DNA from: Candidatus Eiseniibacteriota bacterium
GTDB taxonomy: Bacteria > Eisenbacteria > RBG-16-71-46
Assembly (NCBI GenBank): GCA_005893225.1
Contig: VBOT01000053.1
Span: forward strand, 3,462-67,461
Reading direction: 5' to 3'
Length of the DNA stretch: 64,000 nt
A program made the position numbers and the translations under genes. How positions within the stretch are numbered: position 1 is the stretch's first letter; each line of letters opens with the position of its first letter. This document shows, one piece after another, positions 9,121 through 62,346 of this stretch. The notes beneath the pieces were generated by a model. The model did not search any database and was not told where the DNA came from. It saw only the letters and a list, made by a program, of their open reading frames with translations.

Positions 9121-10122
9121 GTGACGCTGGAAACCGGCACTTCCGACCTCAAGGCCGTCGAGGCGCTCAAGCAGGCCCGCGAGCGCATCCTCGCCGAGCT
9201 GCGCAAGGTGATCGTGGGGCAGGATCAGGTGGTGGAGCAGCTCCTCACCGCCCTCTTCGCGAACGGTCACGTGCTGCTGGTGGGCGTGCCGGGACTCGCG
9301 AAGACGCTGCTCATCTCGAGCCTCGCGCGCGTGCTCGACCTCAAGTTCAGCCGCATCCAGTTCACGCCCGACCTGATGCCGAGCGACATCACCGGCACCG
9401 ACGTGATCGAGGAGGACCAGGCCACCGGCAAGCGCACGTTCCGCTTCATCCAGGGGCCGGTGTTCGCCAACATCCTCCTGGCGGACGAGATCAACCGCAC
9501 TCCCCCCAAGACGCAGGCGGCGCTGCTCCAGGCGATGCAGGAGAAGGAAGTGACGGCGGGCGGCCAGACCATGAAGCTCACGCTCCCGTTCTTCGTGCTC
9601 GCCACCCAGAACCCGATCGAGCTCGAGGGAACGTACCCGCTGCCGGAGGCGCAGCTCGACCGCTTCATGTTCAACGTCCTGGTCGACTATCCCTCGGAAG
9701 CGGAGGAGGAGAAGATCGTCGCCGCGACCACGTCGGACTACGAGGCGCGGCTCGAGCGGGTGCTCGGCGGGGCCGATATCCTCGAGCTCCAGAAGCTGAT
9801 CCGGCGCGTCCCGGTGGCCGACCACGTGGTGCGCTACGCGGTGCGCCTGGCGCGCGCCACGCGCGGGCGCGAGGGCGCTCCCCCGTTCGTCAAGCAATGG
9901 GTGTCGTGGGGGGCGGGGCCGCGCGCCTCGCAGTACCTGGTGCTGGGCGCCAAGACGCGCGCGGTGCTGCTGGGGCGCTACGCTCCGGGCATCGAGGACG
10001 TGAAGGCGGTGGCCCCCGCGGTCCTCCGTCACCGCATCATCAGCAACTTCACGGCCGAGGCCGAGGGCATCCGCCCCGAACGCATCATCGAGGACCTGCT
10101 CCACACGGTCCCGAGCGAGTGA
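9121..10122 (+). CDS. MoxR-family AAA+ ATPase
   Basis: Walker A GVPGLAKT, Walker B ILLADEINR, and VLATQNPIELEGTYPLPEAQLDRF as in MoxR/RavA. Confidence 0.9.
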   Translation: MTLETGTSDLKAVEALKQARERILAELRKVIVGQDQVVEQLLTALFANGHVLLVGVPGLAKTLLISSLARVLDLKFSRIQFTPDLMPSDITGTDVIEEDQATGKRTFRFIQGPVFANILLADEINRTPPKTQAALLQAMQEKEVTAGGQTMKLTLPFFVLATQNPIELEGTYPLPEAQLDRFMFNVLVDYPSEAEEEKIVAATTSDYEARLERVLGGADILELQKLIRRVPVADHVVRYAVRLARATRGREGAPPFVKQWVSWGAGPRASQYLVLGAKTRAVLLGRYAPGIEDVKAVAPAVLRHRIISNFTAEAEGIRPERIIEDLLHTVPSE

Positions 10123-10156
10123 GGGGCGAGGTGCGCCCCGGCCGGCCCGGAGCCGC

Positions 10157-11572
10157 GTGATGCCCGACCGGAGACGGGAATCGAGGGGGGCGAGCGGCGG
10201 AACCGCCGTGGCGCCGAGGGCCCTGGCACTCGAGGGAGCCGAGACCCACCTCAAGCGCCAGATCGGCCTCTACGCCGCGACCGCGATCACGGTCGGCAAC
10301 ATCATCGGCTCGGGGATCTTCCGCTCGCCGCACTCCGTGGCGCAGCACATCAGCGCCTTTCCGCTCGTCATCCTGGCGTGGGTGATCGGCGGCGTGCTGT
10401 CGCTGTGCGGCTCGCTCGCCCTGGCCGAGCTGGCGGTCACCCACCCGCGCACCGGCGGGCTCTACGTGTTCATCCGCGAGGGCTTCGGCGACGCCCGGGC
10501 GTTCGTGTTCGGCTGGTCCAACCTGTGGGTCATCAAGCCGACCGTCATCGCCTCGATCACCACCGTGTTCGCGCTCTACTTCTGCCAGGTCCTCCACTGG
10601 CCCAAGGCCGCCGAGTTCCCGGTGGGCGCGGCGGCGATCCTGCTCCTCACCTTCGTCAACTGGCTCGGCGTGCGGCAGGGCGCCGGGACGCAGTCGCTGT
10701 TCACCACCGCCAAGGTGATCGGCATCCTCGCGCTGTGCATCGCGGCGTTCACGGTGCCGGCCACCTATCGAGCGAGCGCGATGGGCGCGGCTCCGGCGCT
10801 GGAGACGCGCTCGTTCCTCTCGGCCCTGGCGCTGGCCATGATCTCGATCCTCTTCGCCTACGATGGCTGGACCGATTCCACCTACGTCGCGGGCGAGATC
10901 GTCGAACCGAAGCGCACCTTGCCGATCGCGATCGTGTGGGGCACCTGGCTCGTGATCGCGGTCTACGTGCTCACCAACGTCGCCTACTTCCACGTGCTCG
11001 GCGCCGAGGGCGTGGCGCGCTACGAGGCGGTGGGCTCGGAGACCATCCACCGCCTGCTCGGCGACTGGGGGGCGCGGGCGCTCGCCGTCCTGGTGGCGGT
11101 CTCGACCTTCGGCACCATCAACGGCGCCGTCTTGACCGGACCGCGCGTGACCCAGGCCATGGCGGCGGACGGCTTGCTGTGGAAGCCGCTCGCGCGACTC
11201 GACCCGGCCCGCGGGACGCCGGCGATGGCGCTGTGGGTGCAAGGCGTGCTCTCGTGCGTGTGGCTGTGGTGCGCGAGCGGGTTCGAGGACGTCTCGGGCT
11301 GGTTCGTGACCACGTCCTGGCTGTTCTACGCGCTCACCACCGCGTCGCTCTTCGTCCAGCGCCGGCGCGAGGCGCGCGGCGAGATCGCGCAGCCGTCCTA
11401 CCGGACGCCGCTCTATCCGTGGACGCCGATCCTGTTCGTGCTCGCCACCGCCCTGATCATCGCCAGCGACCTGCACGACAGCGGCTGGAAGGCCTGGGCG
11501 GGGGTGGGGATCGCTGCACTCGGCTTCCCTGTCTACTACCTGTGGAAGGGGCGGGGCCCGCGAACGGCCTGA
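10157..11572 (+). CDS. APC-superfamily amino acid permease
   Basis: 12-TM profile with IGSGIF motif (AITVGNIIGSGIFRSP). True start is probably a few codons downstream. Confidence 0.8.
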   Translation: MMPDRRRESRGASGGTAVAPRALALEGAETHLKRQIGLYAATAITVGNIIGSGIFRSPHSVAQHISAFPLVILAWVIGGVLSLCGSLALAELAVTHPRTGGLYVFIREGFGDARAFVFGWSNLWVIKPTVIASITTVFALYFCQVLHWPKAAEFPVGAAAILLLTFVNWLGVRQGAGTQSLFTTAKVIGILALCIAAFTVPATYRASAMGAAPALETRSFLSALALAMISILFAYDGWTDSTYVAGEIVEPKRTLPIAIVWGTWLVIAVYVLTNVAYFHVLGAEGVARYEAVGSETIHRLLGDWGARALAVLVAVSTFGTINGAVLTGPRVTQAMAADGLLWKPLARLDPARGTPAMALWVQGVLSCVWLWCASGFEDVSGWFVTTSWLFYALTTASLFVQRRREARGEIAQPSYRTPLYPWTPILFVLATALIIASDLHDSGWKAWAGVGIAALGFPVYYLWKGRGPRTA

Positions 11573-11583
11573 GCGAGCGTGTC

Positions 11584-12357
11584 ATGGGATCCGAAACCAT
11601 CAGCGATTACATCGAGCCCGAGCTCTACGACGCCATCTACTCGTGGTACCGGGAGGATCCCGCCTTCTACCTGGAGACCGCGCGCGCGGCCGGCGGCCCG
11701 GTGCTGGAGGTGGGCTGCGGCACCGGAAGGCTCCTGATCCCCACGCTCGAGGCGGGCGCGGAAATCGACGGGATCGACCTGAGCCCCGGCATGCTCGAGG
11801 TGCTGCGACGGAAGGCGGCCGCGCGGGGGCTCCAGGCCAGGGTGGCGGTCGGGGACATGCGCGACTTCACCATGCCGCGGCGCTACGCGCTGATCACGAT
11901 CCCGTTCCGGACCTTCCTGCACAACCTCACCGCCGAGGACCAGATCGCGACCCTGCGGTGCTGCCGGGAGCACCTCGAGCCGGGCGGGGCGCTGGTGCTC
12001 AACCTGTTCCACCTGGATTTCGCGCGGGTGATCGCCCGCGAGAAGGAGGAGCGAACCCTGGAGCGCGAGCTGGTCCATCCCGAGAGCGGGCTCCCGATGA
12101 AGATCTTCTCGCGCCACCGCTACGACCGCGTGAACCAGATCCTGGATGCCGACAAGGAGATCCAGGTCCTCGACGAGCACGGCGCGGTCGCCTCGACCCA
12201 TGCTCACCGCTTCCGCCTGCGCTGGATCTACAAGGCGGAGATGGAGCTGCTGCTGCGGCTCGCGGGCTTCAACCGCTGGCAGGTGTGGGGCGGATTCGAC
12301 CGGCGCCCGCTCGCCAGGGACACCGACGAGATGGTGTGGACGGCATGGAAGGATTGA
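11584..12357 (+). CDS. class I SAM-dependent methyltransferase
   Basis: Motif I VLEVGCGTG and motif II IDGIDLS are present. The reported ORF 10378.. is a 5' artefact; ATG 11584 sits directly after the permease stop. Confidence 0.8.
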   Translation: MGSETISDYIEPELYDAIYSWYREDPAFYLETARAAGGPVLEVGCGTGRLLIPTLEAGAEIDGIDLSPGMLEVLRRKAAARGLQARVAVGDMRDFTMPRRYALITIPFRTFLHNLTAEDQIATLRCCREHLEPGGALVLNLFHLDFARVIAREKEERTLERELVHPESGLPMKIFSRHRYDRVNQILDADKEIQVLDEHGAVASTHAHRFRLRWIYKAEMELLLRLAGFNRWQVWGGFDRRPLARDTDEMVWTAWKD

Positions 12358-12914
12358 GCGCAGGAGAGCTTCGCAGCCCCGCGGCGCCCCTCCCCTCGCC
12401 CTACGACGACGGCGCGCTGCGCGACTTCTCGCTGCCGCGCCGCTACACGCTGGTCACGATCCCATTCAACGCCTTCCTCCACAACCTCACGACCGAGGAC
12501 CAGCTCGCCACGCTCTGCCGCTGTCGCGACCACCTGGCCCCGGGAGGGGCCCTGGTGGTGCATGCTTCGCTCTTCACCAGCCCGGAGATCCTTTCCTCGA
12601 CGAACACTCCGATTCTCGAGCTCGAGACCGTCGATCCCGGGACCGGGCACACGCTCCAGCACTACGACACCCGCTCGATCGACCCGGTGAACCAGATCCA
12701 GCACTCGACCAACGAGGTCCGCGAGCTCGACCGTGATGGGCCCCTGGTGTCGTCGCGCCGGACCGAGACCGCGGTGCGCTGGGTCAACCGGGCCGAGTTC
12801 GAGCTGCTGCTGCGGGTTGCGGGGTTCACCCGCTGGGAGCTCTACGGCGGCTTCCGGCGCGAGCCGCTCGACGTCGAGCACCAGCAGATGGTGGCCTTCG
12901 CGTGGAAGGATTAA
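12345..12914 (+). pseudogene. 5'-truncated paralog of the upstream methyltransferase (lacks the SAM-binding motifs I and II)
   Basis: About 55% identical to the C-terminal 180 aa of the 11584..12357 product (DFSLPRRYTLVTIPFNAFLHNLTTEDQLATL vs DFTMPRRYALITIPFRTFLHNLTAEDQIATL). Starts 13 nt inside the upstream gene. No GxGxG motif. Confidence 0.6.
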
Positions 12915-12966
12915 GGGTGGCGATCCGCCTGCGCCGCTTGCGCGCACCGGACGAGGAGGTCCGCTC

Positions 12967-13935
12967 GTGACCGGCTCGTTCCCGCGCGCCTCGTCCGGAG
13001 CCCAGCCGGACCGCGGGCTCGCCGGCGCGCGCGGCGCGGGAGGGGCGCGGCAGTTCCTCGACCCGGCCGTGGTGGCGCGCCTCGCGCACCTCGACGTGCG
13101 GGCCCGCCTGGTGGTGGAGGGCTTCATCGCGGGGATGCATCGCAGCCCGTTCCACGGCTTCAGCATCGAGTTCGCGGAGCACCGCCCCTACATGCCCGGC
13201 GACCCGCTCAAGAACCTGGACTGGAAGGTGTGGGCGCGGAGCGATCGCTACCTGGTGAAGCAGTACACCGAGGAGACCAACCTGCGCTGCCACCTGCTGC
13301 TCGACCTCTCGGGCTCGATGGGCTTCCGGTCCGAGCGGGCCTCGATGAGCAAGCTCGAGTACGCGCAGTCGCTGGCGGCGGCGCTCGCCTACCTGATGCT
13401 CCACCAGCAGGACGCGGTGGGCACGCTCCTGTTCGCCGACCGGCCGCTGGCCTACGTCCCGGCGCGCGCGGTCCGCTCGCACCTGGACGTCCTGCTCAAG
13501 ACGCTCGGCACGCTCGTGCCGCAGGGACGCACGCGCCTCGGCCCCGCGCTCCACGAGCTGGCCGAGCGCATCAAGCGGCGCGGGCTCATCATCCTGTGCT
13601 CCGACCTCATGGACCTGCCCGCCGAGGTGCTCTCGGGGCTCCAGCACTTCCGCCACCGGCACCACGAGGTGATCGTGTTCCACATCCTCGACCCGGACGA
13701 GACCGACTTCCCCTACACCGACACCGCGACTTTCGTGGACATGGAGAGCGGCGAGCGGCTCACCACCGAGCCCTGGGAGATCGCGCGGCGCTACCGCGAG
13801 CGGCTCGCGGCCTGGAGCGAGCAGTACCAGCGCAACTGCCGCGAGCGGCGCATCGACTACGTGCGGCTCGACACGCGCACGCCGTTCGACCGGGCCCTGC
13901 TCGCCTATCTCGAGAAGCGCGCGAGGCTCCTGTGA
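12967..13935 (+). CDS. DUF58 domain protein (MoxR-associated, vWA-like)
   Basis: RSPFHGFSIEFAEHRPYMPGDPLKNLDWKVWARSDRYLVKQYTEE is the DUF58 hallmark. GTG 12967 is preceded by AGGAGG. Confidence 0.85.
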   Translation: MTGSFPRASSGAQPDRGLAGARGAGGARQFLDPAVVARLAHLDVRARLVVEGFIAGMHRSPFHGFSIEFAEHRPYMPGDPLKNLDWKVWARSDRYLVKQYTEETNLRCHLLLDLSGSMGFRSERASMSKLEYAQSLAAALAYLMLHQQDAVGTLLFADRPLAYVPARAVRSHLDVLLKTLGTLVPQGRTRLGPALHELAERIKRRGLIILCSDLMDLPAEVLSGLQHFRHRHHEVIVFHILDPDETDFPYTDTATFVDMESGERLTTEPWEIARRYRERLAAWSEQYQRNCRERRIDYVRLDTRTPFDRALLAYLEKRARLL

Positions 13936-24752: not shown

Positions 24753-26456
24753 ATGACCGCTCTCGATCGGCGCCTCGCCCTTCTCTCGGCGCTCGCCCTC
24801 GCGCTCGCCGGCTGCTCGCAAGGCTCGCCGGTGCTGGCGAGGATCGGCAGCCGCACCATCACCGTGGCCGAGTTCACCGACGTCGCGCGCGGCGCCGGGG
24901 GGCGCTATCCGGGTTCGCCCGACAGCGCCAAGGCCATGCTGCTCGAGGACCTCATCCGCCGCTCCCAGATGCTCGAGCGCGCCTGGCGGAGCGGACTCCT
25001 CGTGGACAGCCTGGTGCGCCGCTATCGACGGAACGTCGAGGGCGAGGTCCTCGCGGCCGCGCTGGTCGAGCGCGAGGTGCCGCGCGACGTCCCCGTGACC
25101 GACGCCGAGGTGGCACAGTTCTACGAATGGCGCAAGACGTCGGCCCACGTCCAGGCGATCTACGCCTCGGATCGAGGGATGGCCGAACAGGCGATGCGCG
25201 ACCTCGAGCGCGGCGAGGACTTCGCCGCCGTGGCCGACCACTACAACCAGCAGGGAATGATCCCGCGCGGAGGGGACCTGGGCTTCCTCACGCCGGGAAC
25301 GCTCGTCAATCCCCTCGACGGCTACGTGCGCGACGCCCCGCTCGGTCGGCCCGTGGGCCCGATCGAGGTGCACGGCCAGGGCTGGTTCATCCTCAGGGTG
25401 ATGGAGCGCAGGCGCGAGGCCCAGGAGCCGCTGGCGCTCCAGCAGGCCAACCTCCGGGCCATGTTGCAGCAGCGCAAGCAGCGGGCGCTGGCGATGCGCG
25501 TCTTCGAGAACCTGCGCGAAGCCTACCGCCTCGAGGTCGACCCCGAAGGTCCGAGGACGCTGTTCGCGCGCTTCAACACCCCGCCGCTGATCGAGGGCAT
25601 GGGAGGGGAGTCCGCGCCCCCGCCGCCGAGCCCGGGAGAGCGCGCGCGGGTGCTGGCGCGTTACGACGGCGGCGAGGGGTACCGCGGCGTCTACACCCTA
25701 GGGGACGCCGTCGACGAGCTCGACCAGGGCGCCGACCCCCCGCCGGCAAAGATGCTGCCCGCGTTCCAGATCTGGATCGAGTCGCGGGTGCTGCAGCGCC
25801 TGCTCGTGCTCGAGGCGCGGCGCCGGCACCTCCACCAGGAGCCCGCGATCGCCCGGCGCATCGAGAATCGCGTCGACGACTACGTGCTCGATTCCATCTA
25901 TCAGGCCGAGGTGCTCACCCGCGCCGAGACCACCGACGACGAGGTTCGAGCCGCCTACGAGCGGCAGTCACCCTCGCTGGCCGAGCTCGGCGGGGCCCAC
26001 GTGATGCACCTCACCGTTCCCGACTCGGCGCTGGCCGAGATGGTGATCCAGCATGCGCGGGCCGCGCCCACGCTGCGGGACGCCATCCTTCATTCCTCCC
26101 CGGGCATCCAGGTGCACGAGGAGGACGTGCGCTATCCGACCACGGATTCGCTGTGGAGCGGGCTCAGGCCGGCGCTGGCCGCGACCGAGCCCGGCGCCTA
26201 CGTCGGGCCGCTGCCGGCCGGCAAGGGCTGGATCGTCATCCAGGTGATCTCCAAGCAACAGGAGATCCCGCCGTTCGAGAAGCTCACTCCCGTGCTCCAG
26301 CACAACCTGCGGGCCGAGGCGGCGCAGCTCGCCCAGGAGCGGCTGCTCGGCCGGCTCCTCGACTCGCTCAGGCGCGCGCTTCCGCCGTGGGTGGATCGCG
26401 CGCAGCTCAAGCGGATCCCCTGGCCGGTCGGGGCCGAGGGCGCCCCAGGGGCCTAG
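24753..26456 (+). CDS. parvulin-type peptidyl-prolyl isomerase lipoprotein (SurA/PpiC-like)
   Basis: Lipobox LALAGC. Parvulin domain HVQAIYAS...GGDLGFLTPGTLV...GWFILRV. Confidence 0.75.
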   Translation: MTALDRRLALLSALALALAGCSQGSPVLARIGSRTITVAEFTDVARGAGGRYPGSPDSAKAMLLEDLIRRSQMLERAWRSGLLVDSLVRRYRRNVEGEVLAAALVEREVPRDVPVTDAEVAQFYEWRKTSAHVQAIYASDRGMAEQAMRDLERGEDFAAVADHYNQQGMIPRGGDLGFLTPGTLVNPLDGYVRDAPLGRPVGPIEVHGQGWFILRVMERRREAQEPLALQQANLRAMLQQRKQRALAMRVFENLREAYRLEVDPEGPRTLFARFNTPPLIEGMGGESAPPPPSPGERARVLARYDGGEGYRGVYTLGDAVDELDQGADPPPAKMLPAFQIWIESRVLQRLLVLEARRRHLHQEPAIARRIENRVDDYVLDSIYQAEVLTRAETTDDEVRAAYERQSPSLAELGGAHVMHLTVPDSALAEMVIQHARAAPTLRDAILHSSPGIQVHEEDVRYPTTDSLWSGLRPALAATEPGAYVGPLPAGKGWIVIQVISKQQEIPPFEKLTPVLQHNLRAEAAQLAQERLLGRLLDSLRRALPPWVDRAQLKRIPWPVGAEGAPGA

Positions 26457-26465
26457 GGACGGTCC

Positions 26466-26587
26466 GGCCCGAGGGCCGTAGAGAGACTCTCGCAGCGCGC
26501 GGAGGCAGGAGCCGGAGCGCGCGTCGCGAGTCAGCGAGCCGGAGACAGGATGGCGGAGGCCGCGGGTCTCTCGGAGGCCCTCGGGCC
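26466..26587. repeat. copy A of a conserved ~121-nt structured intergenic element (candidate ncRNA / 3'UTR element)
   Basis: About 75% identical to 56707..56827. Terminal 12-bp stem GGCCCGAGGGCC/GGCCCTCGGGCC. Internal hairpin CTCGCAGCGCGCG...CGCGCGTCGCGAG around the conserved loop AGGCAGGAGCCGGAG. Lies between convergent genes. Confidence 0.7.
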
Positions 26588-26602
26588 AGACCGTCCCTCG
26601 AT

Positions 26603-27421
26603 TCACCTCAGGCGCCGGCGCACCTCGGCGGCGCGCCGCTCGCTCGCCTCGACCCGGGTGCCGTCCTTGAGCTTCAGGACCAGCACTCCGTCCTCGCCGC
26701 CGTACGACTCGACGGCATCGAGATTGACGAGCGCCGCGCGGTGGACGCGCACGAACCGGCCCGGCGGCAGGCGGCGCTCCAGCTCCTGGAGCGTGTAGTC
26801 GACCAGGTACTCGCGCCCCTCCGAGCGGGCCAGCACCAGCCGGTCGCGCGAGAACACCAGCGGCACCTGGTCGAGCTCGAGCAGCCTCACCTCGCGGCGG
26901 TGGCGCACCGGCAAGCGCCTGAGCTCGGGCATGCGCTCGCGGAGGCCCGGCGAGGCCAGCGCCTTCTCGAGCGCCCTCGCGTGCGCCGTGCGGTCGGGGT
27001 CGCTGGCCTCGGCGGCCACCCGCCGCACCGTCTCGGCCAGGCGCTCGCGGCGGATCGGCTTGAGCACGTAGTCGAGCGCCGCCACCTCGAAGGCCTCCAC
27101 GGCGTAACGGTCGTAGGCCGTCACGAACACCACCAGAGGGGCCCCGGGCCCCTCGAGGTGCCGGGCCACCTCGAGGCCGGAGAGGTCGGGCATGTGGATG
27201 TCGAGGAACGCCACGTCGGGGGCGTGCTCCGCGATCATGGCCAGGGCCTCGGCGCCGCTCTTCGCCGCCGCCACCACCTCGACCGAATCGTGCTCGGAGA
27301 GCAGCTTCTCGAGGAACTGGCGCGCGCGCGGCTCGTCGTCGGCGATCAGCACGCGCACCGGGCGGCCTCCCGGCGGCCCGGGCCCCGCCGCGCTCATGCC
27401 GCGGCCTTCGAGCGCGAGCAC
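26603..27421 (-). CDS. LytTR-family two-component response regulator
   Basis: Receiver domain VRVLIADDEP...DVAFLDIHMPDLSG. C-terminal LytTR DNA-binding domain. Confidence 0.85.
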   Translation of the reverse strand: MLALEGRGMSAAGPGPPGGRPVRVLIADDEPRARQFLEKLLSEHDSVEVVAAAKSGAEALAMIAEHAPDVAFLDIHMPDLSGLEVARHLEGPGAPLVVFVTAYDRYAVEAFEVAALDYVLKPIRRERLAETVRRVAAEASDPDRTAHARALEKALASPGLRERMPELRRLPVRHRREVRLLELDQVPLVFSRDRLVLARSEGREYLVDYTLQELERRLPPGRFVRVHRAALVNLDAVESYGGEDGVLVLKLKDGTRVEASERRAAEVRRRLR

Positions 27422-35648: not shown

Positions 35649-38600
35649 CTACTTCACGAGGAGGAAGCGTCCCGACGTTGCCCGGCCCCCGGCCAGGACG
35701 CGATAGAAGTAGACCCCGCTCCCGAGGGGCGCTCCGGACTCGCCCGAGCCGTCCAGGGCCACCTGGTGCTCGCCCGGAAGGATGCTCGGGAGGTCCAGGA
35801 GCGTGCGGACTCTTCGTCCGCGAAGGTCGAAGACCTCGATCCGCACCGGCCCGGCCCGCGACACCGAGAAATGGAGCTCGCCGTCCCGCCGGAGCGGATT
35901 CGGCGCCACCCAGGATGCCGGATGTGGAACCGGCGAGGCTTCTGGGCCACTCGCGGCCGCGGAGCGGCTCTCGGCCGCCGAGGCCGCCAGCTCCAGGTGG
36001 AGGATCGCCGCCCCACTCGCGGCGCCGTCGTACGAGACGGCGGTCCGCTTCCCGGACCCGGTGATCAGCAGCGCCAGGGCATTGCCGCTCCGCCACCCCG
36101 GGCGCCCGACGATCTCCTGGATCACGGGCGAGAGATCGGGCGTACGCTGCTCGGTGCCCGCCTGCCCGGCCGTCCAGGGCAGGATCGCCGGCCACGACAC
36201 CGCGGCCTGGGTGCCCGTCCCGAGCCTCGCCGTCAGGCTCCCGCTCCCGGTCGTGAATGCCGCGGCGTTGTCCGCCGCCTCCCCGCGAATCGAAAGGGTC
36301 GTCGCCTCGGACTGCGACTCGTCCGCCTGGAACTGCACGTAGGCCCCCGTCACGCTCGACCCTGCCGGGATCGAGAGTCCCGCGAACCGCAGTCCCACGA
36401 CCTTCTGCGGCGTGCCGTCGATCATCATCTCGAGATCGCTGCTGGTGAGGCTGACGCTCCCGTCGGAATGCTCCTCGGCGTCGTCGGGCCCGGCGGCGAT
36501 CCGAGTCTCGAGCGAGGCCCCGCCTCCTGACGATGGGATGTCGTGGCCGACGATCGCCACCGTGTCGCGCGACACGAGCTGCCCGTCGCTGGCCCGGAGC
36601 TCCAGCAGGTAGGTTCCCGCCACGCTGAACGACGCGCGCGTATCCACCGCGGCGGCGTTCGCGAACGTGACCGTCCCGGGGCCGCTGGCCTTGCTCCATG
36701 TTGTTACGAGGGAAGGCGGCTGCGGCAGCCCGTCGTCGGACACGGTTCCGTCCAGCGGCGCGTCGTTCGGCAGCGTGATGACCTGGTCCGGTCCCGCGTT
36801 CACGACCGGGGCCTGGTTAGTCACGGACCCCGACGTGTACTCCACGTGGAGCAGCGCAGCCGCGCCGGGGATCCCATCGAACGACACCGCGGTCCGGTGA
36901 CCCGACCCGGTGACGAGCAGGGCCAGGGCGTTGCCGCTCCGCCACCCGGCGCGCCCGACGATCTCGCGGATCACGGGCGAGAGGTCCGGCGTGCGCTGAT
37001 CGCTCCCCACCTGCCCGGCCGTCCAGGGCAGGAGCCCCGGCCAGCTCACCGCCGCCTGGGTGCCCGCCCCGAGCCTCGCCGTCAGGCTTCCGCTCGAGGT
37101 CGTGAACGCCGCGGCGTTGTCCGCCGCCTCGCCTCGGATCGAAAGCGTCGTCGCCTCGGACTGCGACTCGTCCGCCTGGAACTGCACGTAGGCTCGCGTC
37201 ACGCTCGAGCCCGCCGGGATCGAAACGCCCGTGAAGCGCAGGCCGACCACCTTCTGAGGAGTTCCGTCGATCATCATCTCGAGGTCGCCGCTCGTGAGGT
37301 TGACGCTCCCGTCGGAGCGCTCCTCGGCGTCGTCAGGCCCGGCGGCGATCCGGGTATCGATCGTCCCGGAGCCCGGAGGCCTCGTGTCCACGCAAGCGGT
37401 GTTCGACGGGGCGCCCTCGAGCCCGTTCGTCCCCACCGCCGTGGCCTCGTAGCACAGCTGGGCCTGCGGCGGGCTCGAGTCGGTGAAGCCGAGACTGGTG
37501 ACCAGGCTCGAGTTGAGCTTCTGGAACGAGCCGCCGTCCGCCTGCCGGTAGACGTCGTACCCGCTCACCGTGCCGGAGGGCGGGCCCCACGACAGGTCGA
37601 CCCGCGTCGGAGAAGAGCGCAGGGTCGCGATCAGGCTCTGGGGCGGTCCCGGCGCCGATCCGCCGGAGCCCGGCGAGCCGAACCCGTTCCACAGCGCCTT
37701 GCTGCCGTTCTCCGCCACGGCGATGAGGCTCCCCCTGGGAAGGATCTGTTTCATCCCGCTCACGTTGTTCATGTCCTTGGTGGACGAGATGAAGATCGTC
37801 TGGCCGCCGAAGCTGAGCGCCTCGATGTCGGCGACTCGATACTCGATGCGTTCGGGCGAGACTCCCCAGCGCGTGTAGAGGATGTAGACCTTGGAGTCCT
37901 GCTCAGCGACCATGATGATGCCCCGCGTCCCGGTCCCCGGGCCAATGACGTCGGTCTTAGTTGTCCAGGTGCCGTTCGTGGCGCGCCGGTGGACGCGCAT
38001 ATGATCGACGGCATCCTTGGTGATGGCGTAGACGCGACCCTGGGAATCGAAGGCCAGGTTCACGTGATCGTCGGCGTGGCCCGAGCCGTGGTCCACGACC
38101 TCCTCCGCGGCCCAGGTGCCGGGAGGATCGCTGTCGCGGTGCACCCGGAACCCGAACTCGTCGCGCTTCTGGTCGGACCAGAACACCCCGACCTTGTCGC
38201 CTCCGAAAGCCACGATCGAGGAGATGTCGTCGGCGTCGATTCCGGAGCGCAGGACGATGGAGCTCGACCACGAGCGGTGGTCGGCGGTGGTGGTGTAGTA
38301 GACGTTGACGTTGCCCCCGCCTTCGGCCGTCGCCCAGAGCCGGCCCGAGGAATCCTCCTCGAGCACCATGGTCTCCGAGCCGCTCGGGTTGGGGACCGTC
38401 ACGGGGAACCCCGAGGCCAGGACCCAGGAACGGGTGCCCGCCGCGTAGGTGTACTGGTAGAGCCGCACCGTGCCCCCGTAGACGAGCACGAAGAGATGCG
38501 TACCGTCCCACTTGACGTCCGCGTTCCCCGAGCTCTGGAGCACCGCATTCGCGAACTGCCCGCGTTGCCAGGCGCCTCCGACCAGCTGGTAGAAGGCCAC

Positions 38601-55495: not shown

Positions 55496-56665
55496 ATGCC
55501 TAAACGCCCGCCCCAGCCCTCGGCGCCGCGCGCAACCCTTGCGCTCGCGGCGATCGCCCTCGCCCTGTTCCTCGGCGGCGAGGCGTTTCTCCTCTCGCGC
55601 ACCGACGCCGGACGCATCGCCGCGGCCAGGTACCTGCACCTCGGCGATCCCGCGAAGGTGACCCGGATGATCGGAAGCCAGCTCCACCGGGCGCTCGAGG
55701 CGGCGGAGGTGTCTCGCGACAGCGTGAGCGAGAGCGTGGTGGAAGGCGGTCCCGCGCCGCTCAGGTGGCGCGTCGGGCTCGGACCCGGGATCTCGGCCCT
55801 CCAGGCCAACTACTCGGTCAGCCGATTCCTGGCCGAGGAAGGCGCCGTGGTCCTGAGCGGCAGGGAGCGACCCGGCGATCAAGGTGAGACCGTGGTCACG
55901 CTGCTTCTCGGATTGCCCGGCCGGCCGACTCACGAGCTGCGGCTGGTCCAGCATCCCAGGGGCCGGGTCCAGGCGGCCGGCGGGCGGCTCGCCATCGTGG
56001 TCTTCGGCTTCGGCGAAGACGTCGAGCAGTCGGGGCGGTTCTTCGACCTCCCGGCCCCCTTCGCGGTCGCGCTGGTTCCGGGCGGCAAGACCGCCGCCGC
56101 GCAGTTCCGGGCGGCCCGGCGTCGCGACCGCGAGGTCGTTCTGCACCTTCCCCTCGAGCCGATCAATTACCCGCGAGTCGATCCCGGTCCGGGAACCATC
56201 CTCGTCACCATGGGGCCGTCGAAGATCGCCGACCTGGTGCACCGCTACCTCGAGCAGGCCGGCTCCGTCGCGGCGGTCGCCAACTATTCCGGATCGCTCG
56301 CCACGCAGGACATGACGGTGATGACGTCGGTGTTCCAGGAGCTCCGGCGCCGCGACATCCCGTTCCTTCACGTCTCGGCAGCCGCCGGCTCGGTCTGCAA
56401 GCCGCTCGCCTCCGAGCTCGGCGTCCGGTACGTCGAGCCGGACGCGATCCTCGACGCCGAAGCACGCCCATCCCGACCGCAGGCACTCGAGGCGCGCTGG
56501 AAGCGGGTCCTGGCGGAGGCGCGGCATCGCGGCCACATGCTGGTGATGGTCCGCGCGACCCCGCTCACGCTCGCCTGGCTGCCGAAAGCCCTGACCCCGG
56601 CCCGGCTCGAGGGAACGCAGATCGTGCCGCTCTCGGCGCTGCTTCAGAAGTCGCCGGAGATGTAG
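55496..56665 (+). CDS. divergent polysaccharide deacetylase family protein (YibQ-like)
   Basis: N-terminal TM. Aligns to E. coli YibQ (LAIVVFGFGE / LAIVIDDLGY; EVVLHLPLEP / EVLIHLPMAP; AAVANYSGS / AVGINNHMGS). Confidence 0.65.
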   Translation: MPKRPPQPSAPRATLALAAIALALFLGGEAFLLSRTDAGRIAAARYLHLGDPAKVTRMIGSQLHRALEAAEVSRDSVSESVVEGGPAPLRWRVGLGPGISALQANYSVSRFLAEEGAVVLSGRERPGDQGETVVTLLLGLPGRPTHELRLVQHPRGRVQAAGGRLAIVVFGFGEDVEQSGRFFDLPAPFAVALVPGGKTAAAQFRAARRRDREVVLHLPLEPINYPRVDPGPGTILVTMGPSKIADLVHRYLEQAGSVAAVANYSGSLATQDMTVMTSVFQELRRRDIPFLHVSAAAGSVCKPLASELGVRYVEPDAILDAEARPSRPQALEARWKRVLAEARHRGHMLVMVRATPLTLAWLPKALTPARLEGTQIVPLSALLQKSPEM

Positions 56666-56706
56666 CCGGCCTCGGAACGTCCGGAGGGCGGGCGGCTGAC
56701 AGACTC

Positions 56707-56827
56707 GACCCGGGGGCCGTAGCGAGACTCTCGAGGCGCTCGCAGGCAGGAGCCGGAGAGCACCTCGAGTGAGCGACCCGGAGACACGACGTCGGAGGCC
56801 GCGGGTCTCTTTGGAGGCCCTCGGGTC
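56707..56827. repeat. copy B of the conserved ~121-nt structured intergenic element
   Basis: Terminal stem GACCCGGGGGCC/GGCCCTCGGGTC. Internal hairpin CTCGAGG...CCTCGAG around the same AGGCAGGAGCCGGAG loop. Conserved 3' block CGGAGGCCGCGGGTCTCT. Confidence 0.7.
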
Positions 56828-56834
56828 GGGTCCC

Positions 56835-59327
56835 TCAACAGCCTGGATCGCCGTCCCGGCGTGATGCCGAGAGCTCCAGCACCTTCGCCACGTCCTCGAT
56901 CGAGAACGGCTTGGGCACGACGGCGTCCACGCCCGACCCGTCAAGCTGATCGGGTCCGATCTGGTGCCCCCAGCCCGTGACCAGGGCGATCGTGACGTCC
57001 GGGTCCGCGGCCCGGAGCTCCCGCGCGAGCTGCCAGCCGCTCGAGCCCGGCATCCCGATGTCGGTGAGAACCAGTTCGAAGCGCCCCGGCCGGAAGCGGG
57101 CGAGCGCGCTCTCGGCCCCATCGCACCCCACCGCGCCGTACCCGAGCGTGCGGACGATCTCCACCAGCAGATCTCGAACCGCCGGCTCGTCGTCGACCAC
57201 CAGAACGTCCCCGGTCGGAACCGGCGGGGCCGCCCCCGGCGGCGAATCTGCCGGAGGCACCGTTTTCTCGACGCGCGGGAGCGTGACCTCGAAGCGCGTG
57301 CCGTGGCCGAGCCGGCTCGTGACCGCCACCGCGCCCCCGTGGCGCTCCACCGTCCCGTACACCACCGAAAGACCGAGGCCGGCACCCTTGGGGCCCTTGG
57401 TGGTGAAGAACGGATCGAAGAGCCTCCGCTGGGTCTCGGGCGCCATGCCGATGCCGTCGTCCTCGACCACCACCGCCACCAGGGCCTCTCGAGGAGCGGC
57501 CGCGATGCGGATCGTCCCTCCGCGGGGCAGCGCGTCCGCGGCATTGAGGATCAGGTTGGTGAAGACCTCGCGGAGCTGGCTCGCCTGGCCGCGCACCCAC
57601 AGGCCGGGCGTGGCGTCGAGCCCGACGGTGATGTTCCGCCCCGCGGCTTCGGCCTCGTTCTTCCACCTCGGCCGGGTGAAGGAGATCGAATCGCGCAGCA
57701 CGGCTTCCAGGTCCACCGGCTCCAGGGTCTCGCCCGGGTCGCCGGTGCTGAACCGGTGGAGGCGGCGCACGATCTCGGCGCCATCGCGGGCGGCGAGCTC
57801 CATGACGGAGAACGACTCCAGTAGCTCGGCGGTGGCAAGCGTGCCGTGCGTGGCGCGATGACGCAGGAGCTGGGTGCGGCCGAGGATCGCTCCCAGGACG
57901 TTGTTGAACTCGTGCGCGATGCCGGAGGCCAGCTCGCCCGCGGCCCGGAGCTTCTCCGTCCGCACGAGCTGCTCCCGCGTGCGCTCCAGCTCCTCGATGG
58001 CTCCCTCGAGCCGCTGCTTCATCTGCGCCACGTGGAGGGCCGAGGCGAGGTGGCTCGAGAGCCCGGCAACCACCCGCACCTGCGAGGGCGTGAAGGCACC
58101 GGCCTCCGTGGAGACCAGGAGCAGGGCCGCGGGCGGGCCGATCTCGAGGGCGAGCGGCACCAGCAACGCCGCCTGGAACCCCTCGGCCGAGAGCTCGGCC
58201 GCGAAGCGGTGGGGCACGCCGCGGAGGACGAGGCGCACCGGGAGCGGGCTCCAGAGCTGGCCGGCGAGTCCTTCGTCGAGCTGCGCGCCGAGTGCCAGGC
58301 CACCCCAGGGCGGCGGGGGCTCGAACTGCTCGAAACACGGCGCGGGGCTCTCGTCCGACGGCACGGCGAGGGCCACCGCCGTGCAACGGGTCACGCGGCG
58401 GAGCTGGCTCGCCACCGCACGGAACACGGTGCCGGGATCCTGCGCCCCGCGGGCGCTCTCGGCGATGACGACCACCGCCTCGGCGGCGTCCCGGAGCGCT
58501 TCGGACTCGGCGCGCTCCCGGGCTCGCGACTCGGTGAGCGCGGCGGCCATGGTGTTCATCGACTCCGCCAGGGTTCCGAGCTCGTCAGGACCACCCACGG
58601 GGAGCCGGCGCTCGAGACTGCCCGCGGCGACCGCGCGCGCGAGCTGGCTCGCCTCCCCGAGCGGGCGCACCACCACGCTGAGGAGCAGTCCCGAGGCGAG
58701 CAGCGCCAGGCCGATCACCGCCGCGAGAAGGAGAAGGCCGGCGCGCCCGGCGGTGGCGATGGCGCTCTCGAGCCGCGCGGTGGTGATCTCCACGCGCACC
58801 CATCCCAGGCGACCGCTTCCCCCGCCCGCTCCGCCCTCCGGCAACCCGAAGGCCTCGTCCCTGGAGGGAATCGAGGCTCCCGAGTACCTCGACACCGGGG
58901 TCTCGAGGATCCGGAGCTCTGTGCCCCGGAGGCGCCGCGGGGTCACGCTCAGCCCCCGCGCCGTGGCCGCAACCGCTCCCTCTCCCTCGGCGGCGGACCA
59001 CGACTGCATGTCGTTCACGTGCGCTGCCGCGAGCGTGCCGTCGCCGCGGTAGACCGCCACGCCCACGACGTCGTCTTCCTGGGCCGCCCGGCGCACGAGG
59101 TCTGCCAGCTCGGCGCGATCTCCAATGGTGAGCGGGACCTCGACCGCCTCGGCGGTGCGCTGGACGAGGGCGCGGCTGCGCAGGTCCAGCTCGTGGCCGA
59201 GCCAGTTCCGGGTGAAGAGCATGAGCAGGGTGTAGAAGGCCGCCGCGGCCACCGTGAAGCCCAGGACGAGGAGCACGGCGATCCGGCCCCGGAGGCTGCG
59301 GAGGGATGGCGGCCGCCAGGCTCTCAT
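56835..59327 (-). CDS. hybrid sensor histidine kinase/response regulator (TM-HAMP-GAF-like-HisKA-HATPase-REC)
   Basis: H-box GIAHEFNNVLGAILG. G-box GAGLGLSVV. C-terminal receiver VLVVDDEPAVRDL...DIGMPGSSG. Start MRAW at 59327; the reported upstream extension is an artefact. Confidence 0.85.
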   Translation of the reverse strand: MRAWRPPSLRSLRGRIAVLLVLGFTVAAAAFYTLLMLFTRNWLGHELDLRSRALVQRTAEAVEVPLTIGDRAELADLVRRAAQEDDVVGVAVYRGDGTLAAAHVNDMQSWSAAEGEGAVAATARGLSVTPRRLRGTELRILETPVSRYSGASIPSRDEAFGLPEGGAGGGSGRLGWVRVEITTARLESAIATAGRAGLLLLAAVIGLALLASGLLLSVVVRPLGEASQLARAVAAGSLERRLPVGGPDELGTLAESMNTMAAALTESRARERAESEALRDAAEAVVVIAESARGAQDPGTVFRAVASQLRRVTRCTAVALAVPSDESPAPCFEQFEPPPPWGGLALGAQLDEGLAGQLWSPLPVRLVLRGVPHRFAAELSAEGFQAALLVPLALEIGPPAALLLVSTEAGAFTPSQVRVVAGLSSHLASALHVAQMKQRLEGAIEELERTREQLVRTEKLRAAGELASGIAHEFNNVLGAILGRTQLLRHRATHGTLATAELLESFSVMELAARDGAEIVRRLHRFSTGDPGETLEPVDLEAVLRDSISFTRPRWKNEAEAAGRNITVGLDATPGLWVRGQASQLREVFTNLILNAADALPRGGTIRIAAAPREALVAVVVEDDGIGMAPETQRRLFDPFFTTKGPKGAGLGLSVVYGTVERHGGAVAVTSRLGHGTRFEVTLPRVEKTVPPADSPPGAAPPVPTGDVLVVDDEPAVRDLLVEIVRTLGYGAVGCDGAESALARFRPGRFELVLTDIGMPGSSGWQLARELRAADPDVTIALVTGWGHQIGPDQLDGSGVDAVVPKPFSIEDVAKVLELSASRRDGDPGC

Positions 59328-60268
59328 GGCACGACCTCCCCGCCCTTCACGGCGACTAGCGGGAGCTCGCGACCCAGCGCTCGCGCCGTGCTGCGGTTGA
59401 ACCACCAGCGCACCCGCCGCGCCCTGGACACCGGGATGTCGCCCGGGCGCTCGCCGGCCTGGATGCGGCGGACGATCTCGGCGAGCTGCTCCCCGACCAC
59501 GTTGAAATCGGGGCACGCGGCGGCCAGCGCCCCGGCCCGCACCAGCGCGTCGGAGAACGTGAGCAGGGGGATGCGTCGATCCAGGGAGAGCTTGAGCAGG
59601 AAGTGGAACGCCTCGGGTGCGGCGACCACCGGGTCGGGAGGCAGCCAGAGGGCATCGGCCCCCTCCGTAGCGCCCCGCACCGCGCCCGCGAGCTCGGAGA
59701 GGTCGGCGAGCGGCACCTCGATCAGCTCGAGCTCGAGTGAGGCGGCCGCCGCCCGGGCGGCGCGGGCGAAGGGCGCCCCGGATCCGCGGCCGTAGAACAG
59801 CACGACCCGGCGCACGTCGGGTGCCGCGGTCTTGAGCGCTGCGAGCTCCGTCTCCGGGGGAACATCGCCCGATACGCCGGTCACCCACACGCCCTGGAGC
59901 CCGCGGCGCTCGGGCTGCTGGACCGCGCAAAAGACCAGCGGCGTGCGGGCGAGTTGGTCGCGGGTGAAGAGCGCCGCCCTGAGCCCGACCGCGACCACCA
60001 CATCGGGATGGAGCGCGGCGATCCGGCTCCCCAGAGCCGGGTCGTCCGCCTCACCGAGCACCAGGTCCGCCACGCTTCCCCGGTAGGAGGCGCGAAAGCC
60101 GGCCGCCAGCGAGTCGTAGACCCCGAGCGCACGCGAGCGCAGCACCACGACCGTGCCCGCCCCGGCGGGCGAGGGGGCGGCCGCGAGGCCGAGCGCCACC
60201 GCGAGGAGGAAGCCCGCGGCGGCCATCCCCTCGCGCTCGTGCGCGGGCCCGGCCGGGAGGAGCTTCAC
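59324..60268 (-). CDS. periplasmic substrate-binding protein of the PF04392 (ABC_sub_bind) type, translationally coupled to the hybrid HK
   Basis: Signal peptide. Its stop overlaps the HK start (ATGA). This family is typically encoded beside sensor kinases or cyclases. Confidence 0.6.
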   Translation of the reverse strand: MKLLPAGPAHEREGMAAAGFLLAVALGLAAAPSPAGAGTVVVLRSRALGVYDSLAAGFRASYRGSVADLVLGEADDPALGSRIAALHPDVVVAVGLRAALFTRDQLARTPLVFCAVQQPERRGLQGVWVTGVSGDVPPETELAALKTAAPDVRRVVLFYGRGSGAPFARAARAAAASLELELIEVPLADLSELAGAVRGATEGADALWLPPDPVVAAPEAFHFLLKLSLDRRIPLLTFSDALVRAGALAAACPDFNVVGEQLAEIVRRIQAGERPGDIPVSRARRVRWWFNRSTARALGRELPLVAVKGGEVVP

Positions 60269-62346
60269 GGCCCGCGCCTCGAGCGGAGCTCCACCGTCAG
60301 GAACAGGGCGCGATGATCCTGGATGATCTCGTCCTCCCGGTGCTCGGCCGAGCCCGGGTCCCCGTGGCGCGAGTCGAAGAGGTTCCTGGCATCGAGACCG
60401 ACCTGGAAGGCGCGGGGGAGCAAGGCCGACACGCGCGCGTCCACGACCACCGCCGGCGCCGTTCGGCTGTGGGCGAGCGTCCAGCGCGGGGACAGGTACC
60501 GGACGCCGATCCCGAGCCCGTAGGGCCGCGAGAGCGGGGCGTGGGTCAGGACCGCTTGGGCGTTCCAGCGCGGCGAGTTGGTGAGCTCGAGCCCGGTGTC
60601 CCGGTCGCGGCTCGTCTGCCAGGCGGCGGAAAGCCGCGCGCGAGTGCCCCGCGACCCCACGGCCGCGAGCTCCGCCTCCACCCCCCGGCCCACCACGCGC
60701 GCGCGGTTCCTGAACTCGAGCGTTCCAAGGGTGTCGGTCCGGACCAGGTCGATCAAGTCCCGCACCCAGTTGCCGTAGATCGAGAAGTCGGCGGTGAGCG
60801 GGCCGGCGGTGCGGACCACCGCGCCCTCGAGCGTGTTCACGCGCTCGGGCAGGAGGCCCACCTTGCTCCGGTAGAGGTCGTAACGGGCCTCGTAGACGCT
60901 CGGGGCGCGGAAGGCCGACCCGGCGAGCAGCTTGACCCGGGTCCCGGGGTCCGCTTCCCAGACCACGTCGAGGCGCGGGCTCACCACCGGGTCGAAATCG
61001 GCATAGCGGTCGGCGCGCCCTCCCGCGGTCACCAGGACGGAGCTGCCCACGCGCCGCTCGTCCTGCAGGTACGCCGCGACACGACCGGACCGCGGGTTCT
61101 GCCGGACGTACACGACGAAGGGAACCTCGTCGAAGTTGTCCATCCGGGCGCGGAGGTCGTACTGGCCCTCGGTCCCCAGGGTGACGACGTCGCGGGTCCC
61201 CGGAGACCAGTGGACTCGCAGCTCCGTCCCGACGAGGTCGCCGTCGCCGCGGTCGAAGTTCACCTTCGTGGCGGTATCGGGCCCCTCGATGTAGAAGCCC
61301 CGATAGCGCGCGCCGTCCCAGTAGGCGCGGCTCTGGAGCTCCACGGGACCGGCGAGCCGGCGGGTGTCGGAGAGCTCCACGAAGTCATGGCCGTCGTAGG
61401 TGCGATTGCGGCGGTCGCCGAACGTGGTCTCGAATGCTCCGGTGGGGAAGCGCTTCATCCTCGAGTTGAGCTTGGCGGCGAGCCTCGAGCTCCCCCACTC
61501 GATCGTGCCGAAGAGCCCGCCGGCCTCCTCGCCGTCCGCGTCGATCGCCCGCCCCGAATGGGAGAGGGGATGGTCGTACTCGGCGAAATAGAGATCGGGG
61601 CCGCGGGCGCCCTGCCACGATCCGCTCAGCCGCCACTGGGGCCCTCCAGGGGTCGACGAGGACCAGGCGGCGAAGAGGCGACGGTCTCCCCAGGCGCCGG
61701 CGCGTCCCGCCAGCGCGATTCCCGGCTCGCGGCTCGGATGCCGGGTCACGACGTTGACCACCGCCAGCACCGCGTAGCTTCCGTAGAGGGCCGACCCCGG
61801 CCCGCGCACCACCTCGATGCGCTCCACGTTCTCGAGGTCGAGACCGAGCTCGCTCCCGAACAGCCCGTCGCCGTAGACGTAGCCGTTCAGCGTGTGCCCG
61901 TCGATGGCGAGCAGCACCTTGTTGTTGTAGTCGCCGGGGCGCAGGAGTCCGCGCACGCCCACGTAGGAGTAGCTGCGGTCGTAGGTGACGAACAGCCCGC
62001 GCACCCAGCGAAGCGCCTCGGCCACGGTGGCATATCCGTGGGTGCGAATCTCCTCGGCCGTGATCACCGTGACCGAGGAAGGGGCCTCGCCGAGGGGCTG
62101 GGGGTGCTTGGCGGCGCCGGTGACGAAGGATTCCTCTCGCACGATGGCGAAGGGGTCGTCTGCGGGGGCTCTGGCGAACGGGTCGCCGGAAGAAGCAACG
62201 CCGAGCCCATCGCCGGCGGGAGGCGCGGCGCGGTCGTTGACCGGCGGATCGGCGCCCCACGCGAGCGGCGCGGCGACGGTGACCCAGGCGCTCAGTGCCA
62301 CGGCACAAAGCTCCGGCCAATACTTGTGCCACTTTCGGATCGACAT
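60265..62346 (-). CDS. TonB-dependent outer-membrane receptor
   Basis: Signal peptide. Plug domain (TVITAEEIRTHGYATVAEALRWVRGLFV...RIEVVRGPGSALYGS). Long beta-barrel. GGAGG RBS before ATG 62346. Confidence 0.8.
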   Translation of the reverse strand: MSIRKWHKYWPELCAVALSAWVTVAAPLAWGADPPVNDRAAPPAGDGLGVASSGDPFARAPADDPFAIVREESFVTGAAKHPQPLGEAPSSVTVITAEEIRTHGYATVAEALRWVRGLFVTYDRSYSYVGVRGLLRPGDYNNKVLLAIDGHTLNGYVYGDGLFGSELGLDLENVERIEVVRGPGSALYGSYAVLAVVNVVTRHPSREPGIALAGRAGAWGDRRLFAAWSSSTPGGPQWRLSGSWQGARGPDLYFAEYDHPLSHSGRAIDADGEEAGGLFGTIEWGSSRLAAKLNSRMKRFPTGAFETTFGDRRNRTYDGHDFVELSDTRRLAGPVELQSRAYWDGARYRGFYIEGPDTATKVNFDRGDGDLVGTELRVHWSPGTRDVVTLGTEGQYDLRARMDNFDEVPFVVYVRQNPRSGRVAAYLQDERRVGSSVLVTAGGRADRYADFDPVVSPRLDVVWEADPGTRVKLLAGSAFRAPSVYEARYDLYRSKVGLLPERVNTLEGAVVRTAGPLTADFSIYGNWVRDLIDLVRTDTLGTLEFRNRARVVGRGVEAELAAVGSRGTRARLSAAWQTSRDRDTGLELTNSPRWNAQAVLTHAPLSRPYGLGIGVRYLSPRWTLAHSRTAPAVVVDARVSALLPRAFQVGLDARNLFDSRHGDPGSAEHREDEIIQDHRALFLTVELRSRRGP

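Follow-up and report, generated by a model that had tools for sequence, protein, structure and literature searches.

The window, by which we mean the whole 64-kb stretch of Candidatus Eisenbacteria DNA analyzed here, carries two copies of a structured repeat, A and B, that are 83-84% identical over ~135 nt (alignment; blastn E=3e-32). A diagnostic 20-mer, GGGCCGTAGNGAGACTCTCG, occurs in the window only in these two copies, with 0.05 occurrences expected by chance. Each copy is located between convergent genes, directly against the stop codon of a minus-strand two-component gene, as the sequence-only reading had claimed and as the ORFs and hairpin ends confirm (Table 1). Copy A occupies the entire intergenic space from the stop codon of a PpiC rotamase gene (26454-26456), with its 5' arm beginning within that TAG, to the stop codon of a LytTR response regulator. 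Copy B runs to the stop codon (56835-56837, TCA) of a hybrid histidine kinase gene, for which the gene call on the identical contig L100 gives a product of 830 aa. The similarity between the copies had been said to continue through GTCCCTC up to these stops, and it does: the motif lies at 26592-26598 in copy A, 4 nt before the stop, and at 56830-56836 in copy B, overlapping the stop, and in each hairpin it forms the distal part of the 3' arm. The span originally assigned to copy B, 56707-56827, marks a real element but is slightly too small, since the hairpin covers 56702-56832 and the core 56710-56824.

Table 1. Features of copies A and B and their flanking genes, in window coordinates.
Feature	Position	Strand	Description
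Gene upstream of copy A	24753-26456	+	PpiC rotamase
Copy A whole hairpin	26455..26598	+	Core 26469-26584, arms 26455-26468 and 26585-26598; inverted-repeat search and predicted fold
Gene downstream of copy A	stop 26603-26605	-	Response_reg+LytTR regulator
Gene upstream of copy B	55496..56665	+	YibQ-like divergent polysaccharide deacetylase (PF04748); context, outside the element
Copy B possible outer extension	56694-56698 / 56839-56843		GGCTG / CAGCC, the CAGCC within the kinase ORF; predicted folds
Copy B whole hairpin	56702-56832	+	Predicted fold
Copy B 5' arm	56702..56709	+	GACTCGAC; pairs with 56825-56832; copy-specific
Copy B core	56710..56824	+	~115 nt; unit common to all family members
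Copy B 5' terminal inverted repeat	56710-56718	+	CCGGGGGCC; family consensus CCGAGGGCC, 9 bp
GTAG	56719..56722	+	5' foot of P1b, 1 nt 5' of P1b; unpaired in the consensus structure
Helix P1b, 5' strand	56724..56730	+	GAGACTC; pairs with GGGTCTC 56803-56809; closes the three-way junction
Hairpin P2	56731..56768	+	TCGAGGCGCTCG...GAGCACCTCGA; apical GGC-AGGA-GCC; invariant CCGGAG
Hairpin P3 region	56769..56802	+	GCGACCCGGAGACACGACGTCGGAGGCCGC; invariant CCGGAGAC and CGGAGGC
Copy B 3' terminal inverted repeat	56816-56824	+	GGCCCTCGG; 9 bp
Copy B 3' arm	56825..56832	+	GTCGGGTC; runs to the kinase stop codon
Gene downstream of copy B	56835..59327	-	HAMP/HATPase_c/REC hybrid histidine kinase; context, outside the element

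The family was recovered by one exact 18-mer scan (GGCCGTAGNGAGACTCTC) of JGI metagenomes together with exact-protein look-ups. The scan returned 33 stretches, 15 of which carry the element; the other 18 are unrelated DNA of all GC contents and were discarded as chance matches. Counting A and B, there are 11 distinct loci at 10 distinct sites (A; B; L124; L133/L135; L132; L116; L109; L120/L118; L122; L119; L111), nine of these loci lying beyond the window in soil metagenomes. L124 is the ortholog of copy B in a relative 89% identical in DNA. The source names of homologs assign the organism to Candidatus Eisenbacteria. Cores across the family are 84-97% identical and fall into an A-type group (A, L133, L132, L116, L120, and L109; 93-97% identical) and a B-type group (B, L124, L122, L119, and L111; 87-91% identical). 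A covariance model of the family, R1, scores copy A at 153.2 bits and copy B at 133.8 bits and recovers every known copy at 112-160 bits, with 60.7 bits for the L111 fragment at a contig end. The only core length variant seen is L120 2826-2992 (and L118), which has an extra 18-nt self-complementary segment in the 5' strand of P2.

The limits of homology among paralogous copies coincide exactly with perfect 9-bp terminal inverted repeats, CCGAGGGCC...GGCCCTCGG; the core measures 114-118 nt and the whole hairpin 130-170 nt. Whether as RNA or single-stranded DNA, and on both strands, the element is predicted to fold into a long Y-shaped stem that opens to a three-way junction. The predicted order from outside to inside is the arms (P0), P1 (CCGAGGGCC/GGCCCTCGG), an internal loop with GTAG, P1b, and the hairpins P2 and P3. 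Calculated RNA folding energies are -103 kcal/mol for copy A (z = -7.6) and -82 kcal/mol for copy B (z = -3.9), and the corresponding DNA values are -57 and -41 kcal/mol. The consensus structure of nine complete copies has standard pairs in 93% of pair cells, versus 29-44% with the partners slid, and double-sided changes in 19 of 54 pairs; none of 500 shuffles reached the observed values. P1b (7 bp, pairs 32-38 with 133-139) is paired in 95% of cells and contains a conserved T.G pair, while P2 shows compensatory changes between two subfamilies at one C-G versus A-U pair (5 and 4 copies) and one G-C versus U-A pair (7 and 2 copies). Each element has one GTAG, invariant in 9/9 aligned copies, and the loop motifs AGCCGGAG, CCGGAGAC, and CGGAGGC are also invariant among the aligned copies (n=9). 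With the invariant T.G set aside, G.U and A.C mismatches number ~11 and 13, figures from which no strand call is made. A small ORF was also considered and rejected by eye, the sole ATG, in the P3 loop, being neither conserved nor present in copy B.

Covarying stems and several loop motifs invariant in 9/9 copies would fit a functional structured RNA kept by selection, either a 3'-UTR stabilizer or terminator module or a protein-titrating RNA similar to a CsrA/RsmA sponge. The + strand of the element has GGA/GGAG (CCGGAG twice, CGGAGGC, and AGGA apical loops) in nearly every loop, resembling CsrA/RsmA sites. There are 5-9 GGA on this strand versus 0-1 on the - strand, most of them unpaired in the predicted fold, and Eisenbacteria encode CsrA homologs (PMC13443453) and also flagellar genes. 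However, the GGA count is not above that of dinucleotide-preserving shuffles (P ~0.01-0.6 per copy), and GGA motifs have been lost: copy B has CACGAC instead of the apical P3 GGA present in other copies, and another GGA is lost in L124. No promoter-like sites were found at the element, and although the hairpin itself is present, no T run follows it on either strand to provide the U tract of a Rho-independent terminator. Rfam 15 gave 0 matches at gathering thresholds across the whole window, and the matches at E<=10 around A and B were at chance level (E ~1 or higher). The Csr/Rsm sponge RNAs CsrB, RsmY, and RsmZ are comparable in being RNAs of ~110-130 nt with 5-9 GGA in hairpin and internal loops; they differ in being encoded by one to a few genes per genome, each with its own promoter and terminator, whereas the Eisenbacteria element is a multi-copy repeat located in 3' intergenic palindromes, with a GGA content that follows composition.

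The placement of the two window copies had also been taken to suggest a conserved 3'UTR or attenuator RNA shared by signalling genes. When the family copies and their neighbors were tabulated, this association was not upheld: two-component genes adjoin the element only at the two sites of the window (A, and B with its ortholog L124), and at 8 of the 10 distinct sites no neighbor is a signalling gene. Neighbors outside the window are ValRS, FtsY, pyrF/ECF sigma, a transaldolase-PGI fusion, zincin-TPR, DUF1028, ABC ATPase, and PHP protein genes. Seven of the ten sites are between convergent genes and two between tandem genes, one in sense orientation (L120) and one antisense (L122), and L111 adjoins a gene start; the foot of the hairpin is 0-25 nt from stop codons. 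LytTR orthologs (75-81% identical) at four related loci are followed by short unrelated spacers with no element, and the hybrid kinase gene is itself missing from the syntenic region of the relative L138. Given these unrelated neighbors, the varying orientation, and an ortholog divergence close to that of third codon positions, an RNA specific to two-component signalling genes is highly improbable. The link to signalling is instead explained as a coincidence of this window, and the preference for positions just after stop codons as a property of the whole family.

In L138, only 12 nt separate the YibQ gene from the TonB-dependent receptor gene that comes next, and neither the hybrid kinase block nor the element is present. 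Copy B borders this two-gene block of hybrid kinase and ABC_sub_bind genes (56835-60300), which is missing from the otherwise syntenic L138 10001-13141. At the copy A locus, the LytTR regulator is followed by different genes in the four related loci L141, L142, L144, and L145. These comparisons indicate that copies A and B both mark synteny breakpoints, and because synteny in the relatives breaks exactly there, an empty-site comparison at either locus is uninformative.

The FtsY locus provides such a comparison. There, L116 and L147 have flanks with 93.75% identity extending as far as the two stop codons, and the spacers between these flanks are unlike: that of L116 is 173 nt long and holds the element, while that of L147 is an unrelated 52 nt with a short unrelated hairpin. 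The empty L147 site contains no counterpart of the L116 arms, and no common sequence was detectable between the two spacers. Once inserted, the element decays between orthologs at about the synonymous rate. Copy B and L124 are 84% identical in the core, compared with 85-88% at third codon positions in the genes on either side and 70% in unstructured spacer; this is near neutral, with some loop motifs lost. Between strains, copy A and L110 1668-1813 show 0 differences in 146 nt where ~4 would be expected from the surrounding 4.4 kb (97.2% identical, one strain pair), which is a weak hint of constraint. Strain variation in copy B is ordinary, with 2 differences versus L102, L103, and L137. For a functional RNA, the identity of copy A between strains whose flanks are 2.8% different is a point in favor, but the near-synonymous divergence of orthologous copies, the variable orientation to flanking genes, and the absence of the element from ~100 kb of related Eisenbacteria DNA and, in a close relative, from the FtsY site all count against it, and we consider selection for an RNA function to be unlikely.

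The distribution of the family is narrow. No copy was found by R1 in ~100 kb of Eisenbacteria DNA with orthologous proteins 60-80% identical, nor in 185,579 GTDB species genomes scanned with two exact core blocks (GGCAGGAGCCGGAG..CCGGAGA) that are present in at least 4 but not all copies; the 99 stretches returned by the GTDB scan were all chance or unrelated coding matches without extended similarity. Phage, plasmid, and viral collections likewise gave no true match, at most chance ones. The 64 kb contain two copies and the metagenomes 11 or more distinct loci, and four contigs (L104, L109, L111, and L135) end inside the element. Four independent contig ends of this kind suggest a repeat frequent enough to interrupt short-read assemblies. 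For copies at contig ends, the measured identity (e.g., 100% for L109 versus L133) may be an assembly artefact.

At every complete locus the core is embedded in arms of 8-26 bp that are complementary to each other but cannot be aligned between loci, so that the core is the exact center of a near-perfect, locus-specific palindrome. Arm identity between paralogous loci is 15-55%, which is the chance level, and the arms of copy B are 21-36% identical to those of paralogs. In contrast, the arms of the orthologs B and L124 are 79% identical, indicating that arms do not evolve unusually fast and were different from the start. Complementarity of the flanks reaches the core with no loop remnant, and in L132 it forms a perfect 35-bp stem. 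Two arm types are found at several loci, joined to cores of different subtypes: GTGAATCGAGGG in A, L120, L122, and a derivative at L133, and GGCGGAGTCCCGG in L133, L119, and L111. This recurrence allows more than one candidate unit of movement. At L119 (6335-6568) the arms are reiterated in tandem: the left side has two 24-nt units (GGATCCGGCGGAGTCYCGGCCGAGG) and the right side three units in inverted orientation. The resulting palindromes are nested, as though arm units had duplicated or elements had inserted into remnants made up of arms alone.

The alternative that the repeat is a small non-autonomous mobile element targeting gene ends, also raised by the sequence-only reading, agrees with a family that is dispersed, sharply bounded, restricted to one lineage, and absent from the FtsY site of a relative. 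Its classical form would be a cut-and-paste MITE, an internally deleted IS moved by the transposase of its parent and inserted into the tips of pre-existing terminator hairpins. Bacterial MITEs such as Correia/CREE, ERIC, RUP, and BOX have direct target-site duplications, usually a recognizable parent IS, and flanks that are not inverted repeats, and they are often co-transcribed with neighboring genes. The Eisenbacteria element resembles them in its size, its perfect 9-bp terminal inverted repeats with sharp homology boundaries, its stable RNA and DNA hairpins, and its intergenic location; a narrow host range also fits, and the nested arms of L119 look as if a copy had inserted into an earlier arm-only remnant. 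It differs from them at its flanks. Direct repeats, which the proposed MITE test called for, are absent, and the flanks are instead reverse complements of each other in 9/9 complete copies.

Since flank complementarity runs right to the core, cut-and-paste insertion would also need targets that are perfect palindromes without a loop, having arms as long as 26 bp, and cleavage of these targets at their exact center. No long palindrome lacking a core was found in the 64-kb window or the other contigs examined, and the empty FtsY site of L147 has only its short unrelated hairpin. One apparent solo hairpin, a 66-nt structure at L133 1234-1299 (also L135 147-212) with arms GTGAATCGAGGG/CCCCCGATTCAC, lies 35 nt upstream of a full element and was considered as an unoccupied pre-existing target. 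Alignment shows that it is an internally deleted, inverted copy: it holds the last ~30 nt of the core in the opposite orientation (27/33 identical), a score equaled in 1 of 1000 shuffles. No parent IS, and no longer element with CCGAGGGCCGTAG... ends, was present among the metagenome matches; all 15 true matches are short, the largest variant being only +18 nt (L120), although an exact 18-mer scan could miss a diverged parent. We regard a cut-and-paste MITE as quite unlikely.

There are three candidate accounts of how the arms arose. The arms may travel with the core, with cores swapped between elements by gene conversion; the core may insert into palindrome tips; or one flank may be copied by fold-back or template switching. 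Related to the last of these is the proposal that the family is mobile DNA whose establishment creates, or strictly requires, an inverted rather than a direct duplication of the flank. Such a duplication might be produced by fold-back or template-switch synthesis primed by the element's own 9-bp terminal palindrome or, alternatively, by a folded single strand that caps a broken end. This proposal would explain together the central position of cores that are 95-97% identical, the lack of a loop remnant, and the lack of unoccupied palindromes, but we give it only a small chance of being correct. If true, the inverted-duplication signature would be one not described for bacterial transposable elements. 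If insertion does generate the arms, the family would represent an undescribed form of DNA integration via hairpin or fold-back intermediates and would offer a tractable sequence signature for finding more such elements.

Among known repeats, the largest REP super-family carries GTAG as its tag. REPs can also occur as dimers around conserved, structured spacers; some of these dimers fold into one large hairpin and have spacers that contain two stem-loops (PMC3733652). GTAG REPs and their dimers (Di Nocera et al. 2013, PMC3733652; Nunvar et al. 2010, PMC2817692) resemble the Eisenbacteria element as extragenic palindromes found mostly downstream of ORFs, between convergent or unidirectional genes. 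Both have an unpaired GTAG beside a stem of 6-9 bp (here the 7-bp P1b), a likeness that may reflect homology or convergence, as well as G.T pairs in stems, and REP families are often species-specific. GTAG REPs number tens to hundreds per genome and are accompanied by a cognate RAYT (Y1 HUH transposase) gene that REPs flank. REP units are 20-40 bp with a stem of 6-13 bp, however, whereas the Eisenbacteria core of ~115 nt is 3-5 times larger, outside the REP size range, and contains a three-way junction, with P1b as the sole helix comparable to a REP stem; its outer arms also vary by locus and are not one conserved REP sequence. BIMEs and REPINs, REP doublets mobilized by RAYTs (Bertels and Rainey 2011, PMC3116915), share a mosaic architecture, a hairpin of ~100-170 nt, non-autonomy, and persistence in a single lineage. 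Their conservation is the reverse of that seen here, with conserved inverted REP arms around a variable spacer in place of variable arms around a conserved center. Miniature elements of the IS200/IS605 type, which are mobilized as single strands by Y1 HUH enzymes and depend on folded single-stranded DNA, are similar in having no direct target duplication and in their subterminal imperfect hairpins (cf. P2 and P3). They differ in lacking terminal inverted repeats and in their insertion site, which is 3' of a fixed tetra- or pentanucleotide; beside the Eisenbacteria cores, no constant target motif was seen.

Taken together, A and B are probably members of a young REP/BIME- or MITE-like family of non-autonomous repeats, confined to one Candidatus Eisenbacteria lineage and selfish in nature, and not a signalling RNA. 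Under this interpretation, the non-autonomous DNA spreads, or recently spread, into the spacers just after stop codons, where insertions would be tolerated, and each copy would then drift at a roughly neutral rate. The GTAG tag and the hairpin-rich architecture suggest that the element may move in the form of folded single-stranded DNA through the action of an enzyme whose gene lies elsewhere, e.g., a RAYT or an IS200/IS605-type HUH Y1 transposase. No transposase or RAYT gene is present among the 21 window ORFs scanned against Pfam, which have ordinary chromosomal functions, or among the genes annotated on overlapping contigs. E. coli REPs act as a transcription road-block or exonuclease barrier, and a hairpin immediately behind convergent stops, with predicted energies of -80 to -100 kcal/mol on either strand, would probably act likewise, as an incidental bidirectional 3'-end structure.

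Both the sequence and the host of this family are new. Among palindromic repeats of known kinds it is an unusual variant, set apart by a conserved three-way-junction core centered in locus-specific palindromes that reach stop codons. If it is simply REP/MITE-like, it would be the first element of its kind to be described from Eisenbacteria, an uncultured phylum. It would also be one cause of assembly breaks in soil metagenomes and a likely bidirectional 3'-end structure that annotators should not take for a regulatory RNA of signalling genes.

The window also contains other repeats. Three tandem repeats of ~1017-1023 nt (68-78% identical) at 1648-4035 lie in a 1242-aa ORF with phosphoesterase, PKD, Big_9, CBM_4_9, and FlgD_ig domains, and correspond to Ig-like modules of a surface protein. 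At 35991-37139, two 300-nt segments that are 849 nt apart and 84% identical lie in a 1130-aa minus-strand ORF, whose PKD-like and FlgD_ig domains suggest another internally repeated surface protein. Direct repeats of ~140 nt, 70-79% identical and spaced by 557-560 nt, are found at 11858-12915, mostly between an amino-acid permease ORF (stop-to-stop 10004-11572) and a DUF58 ORF (12691-13935), and enter the start of the latter.
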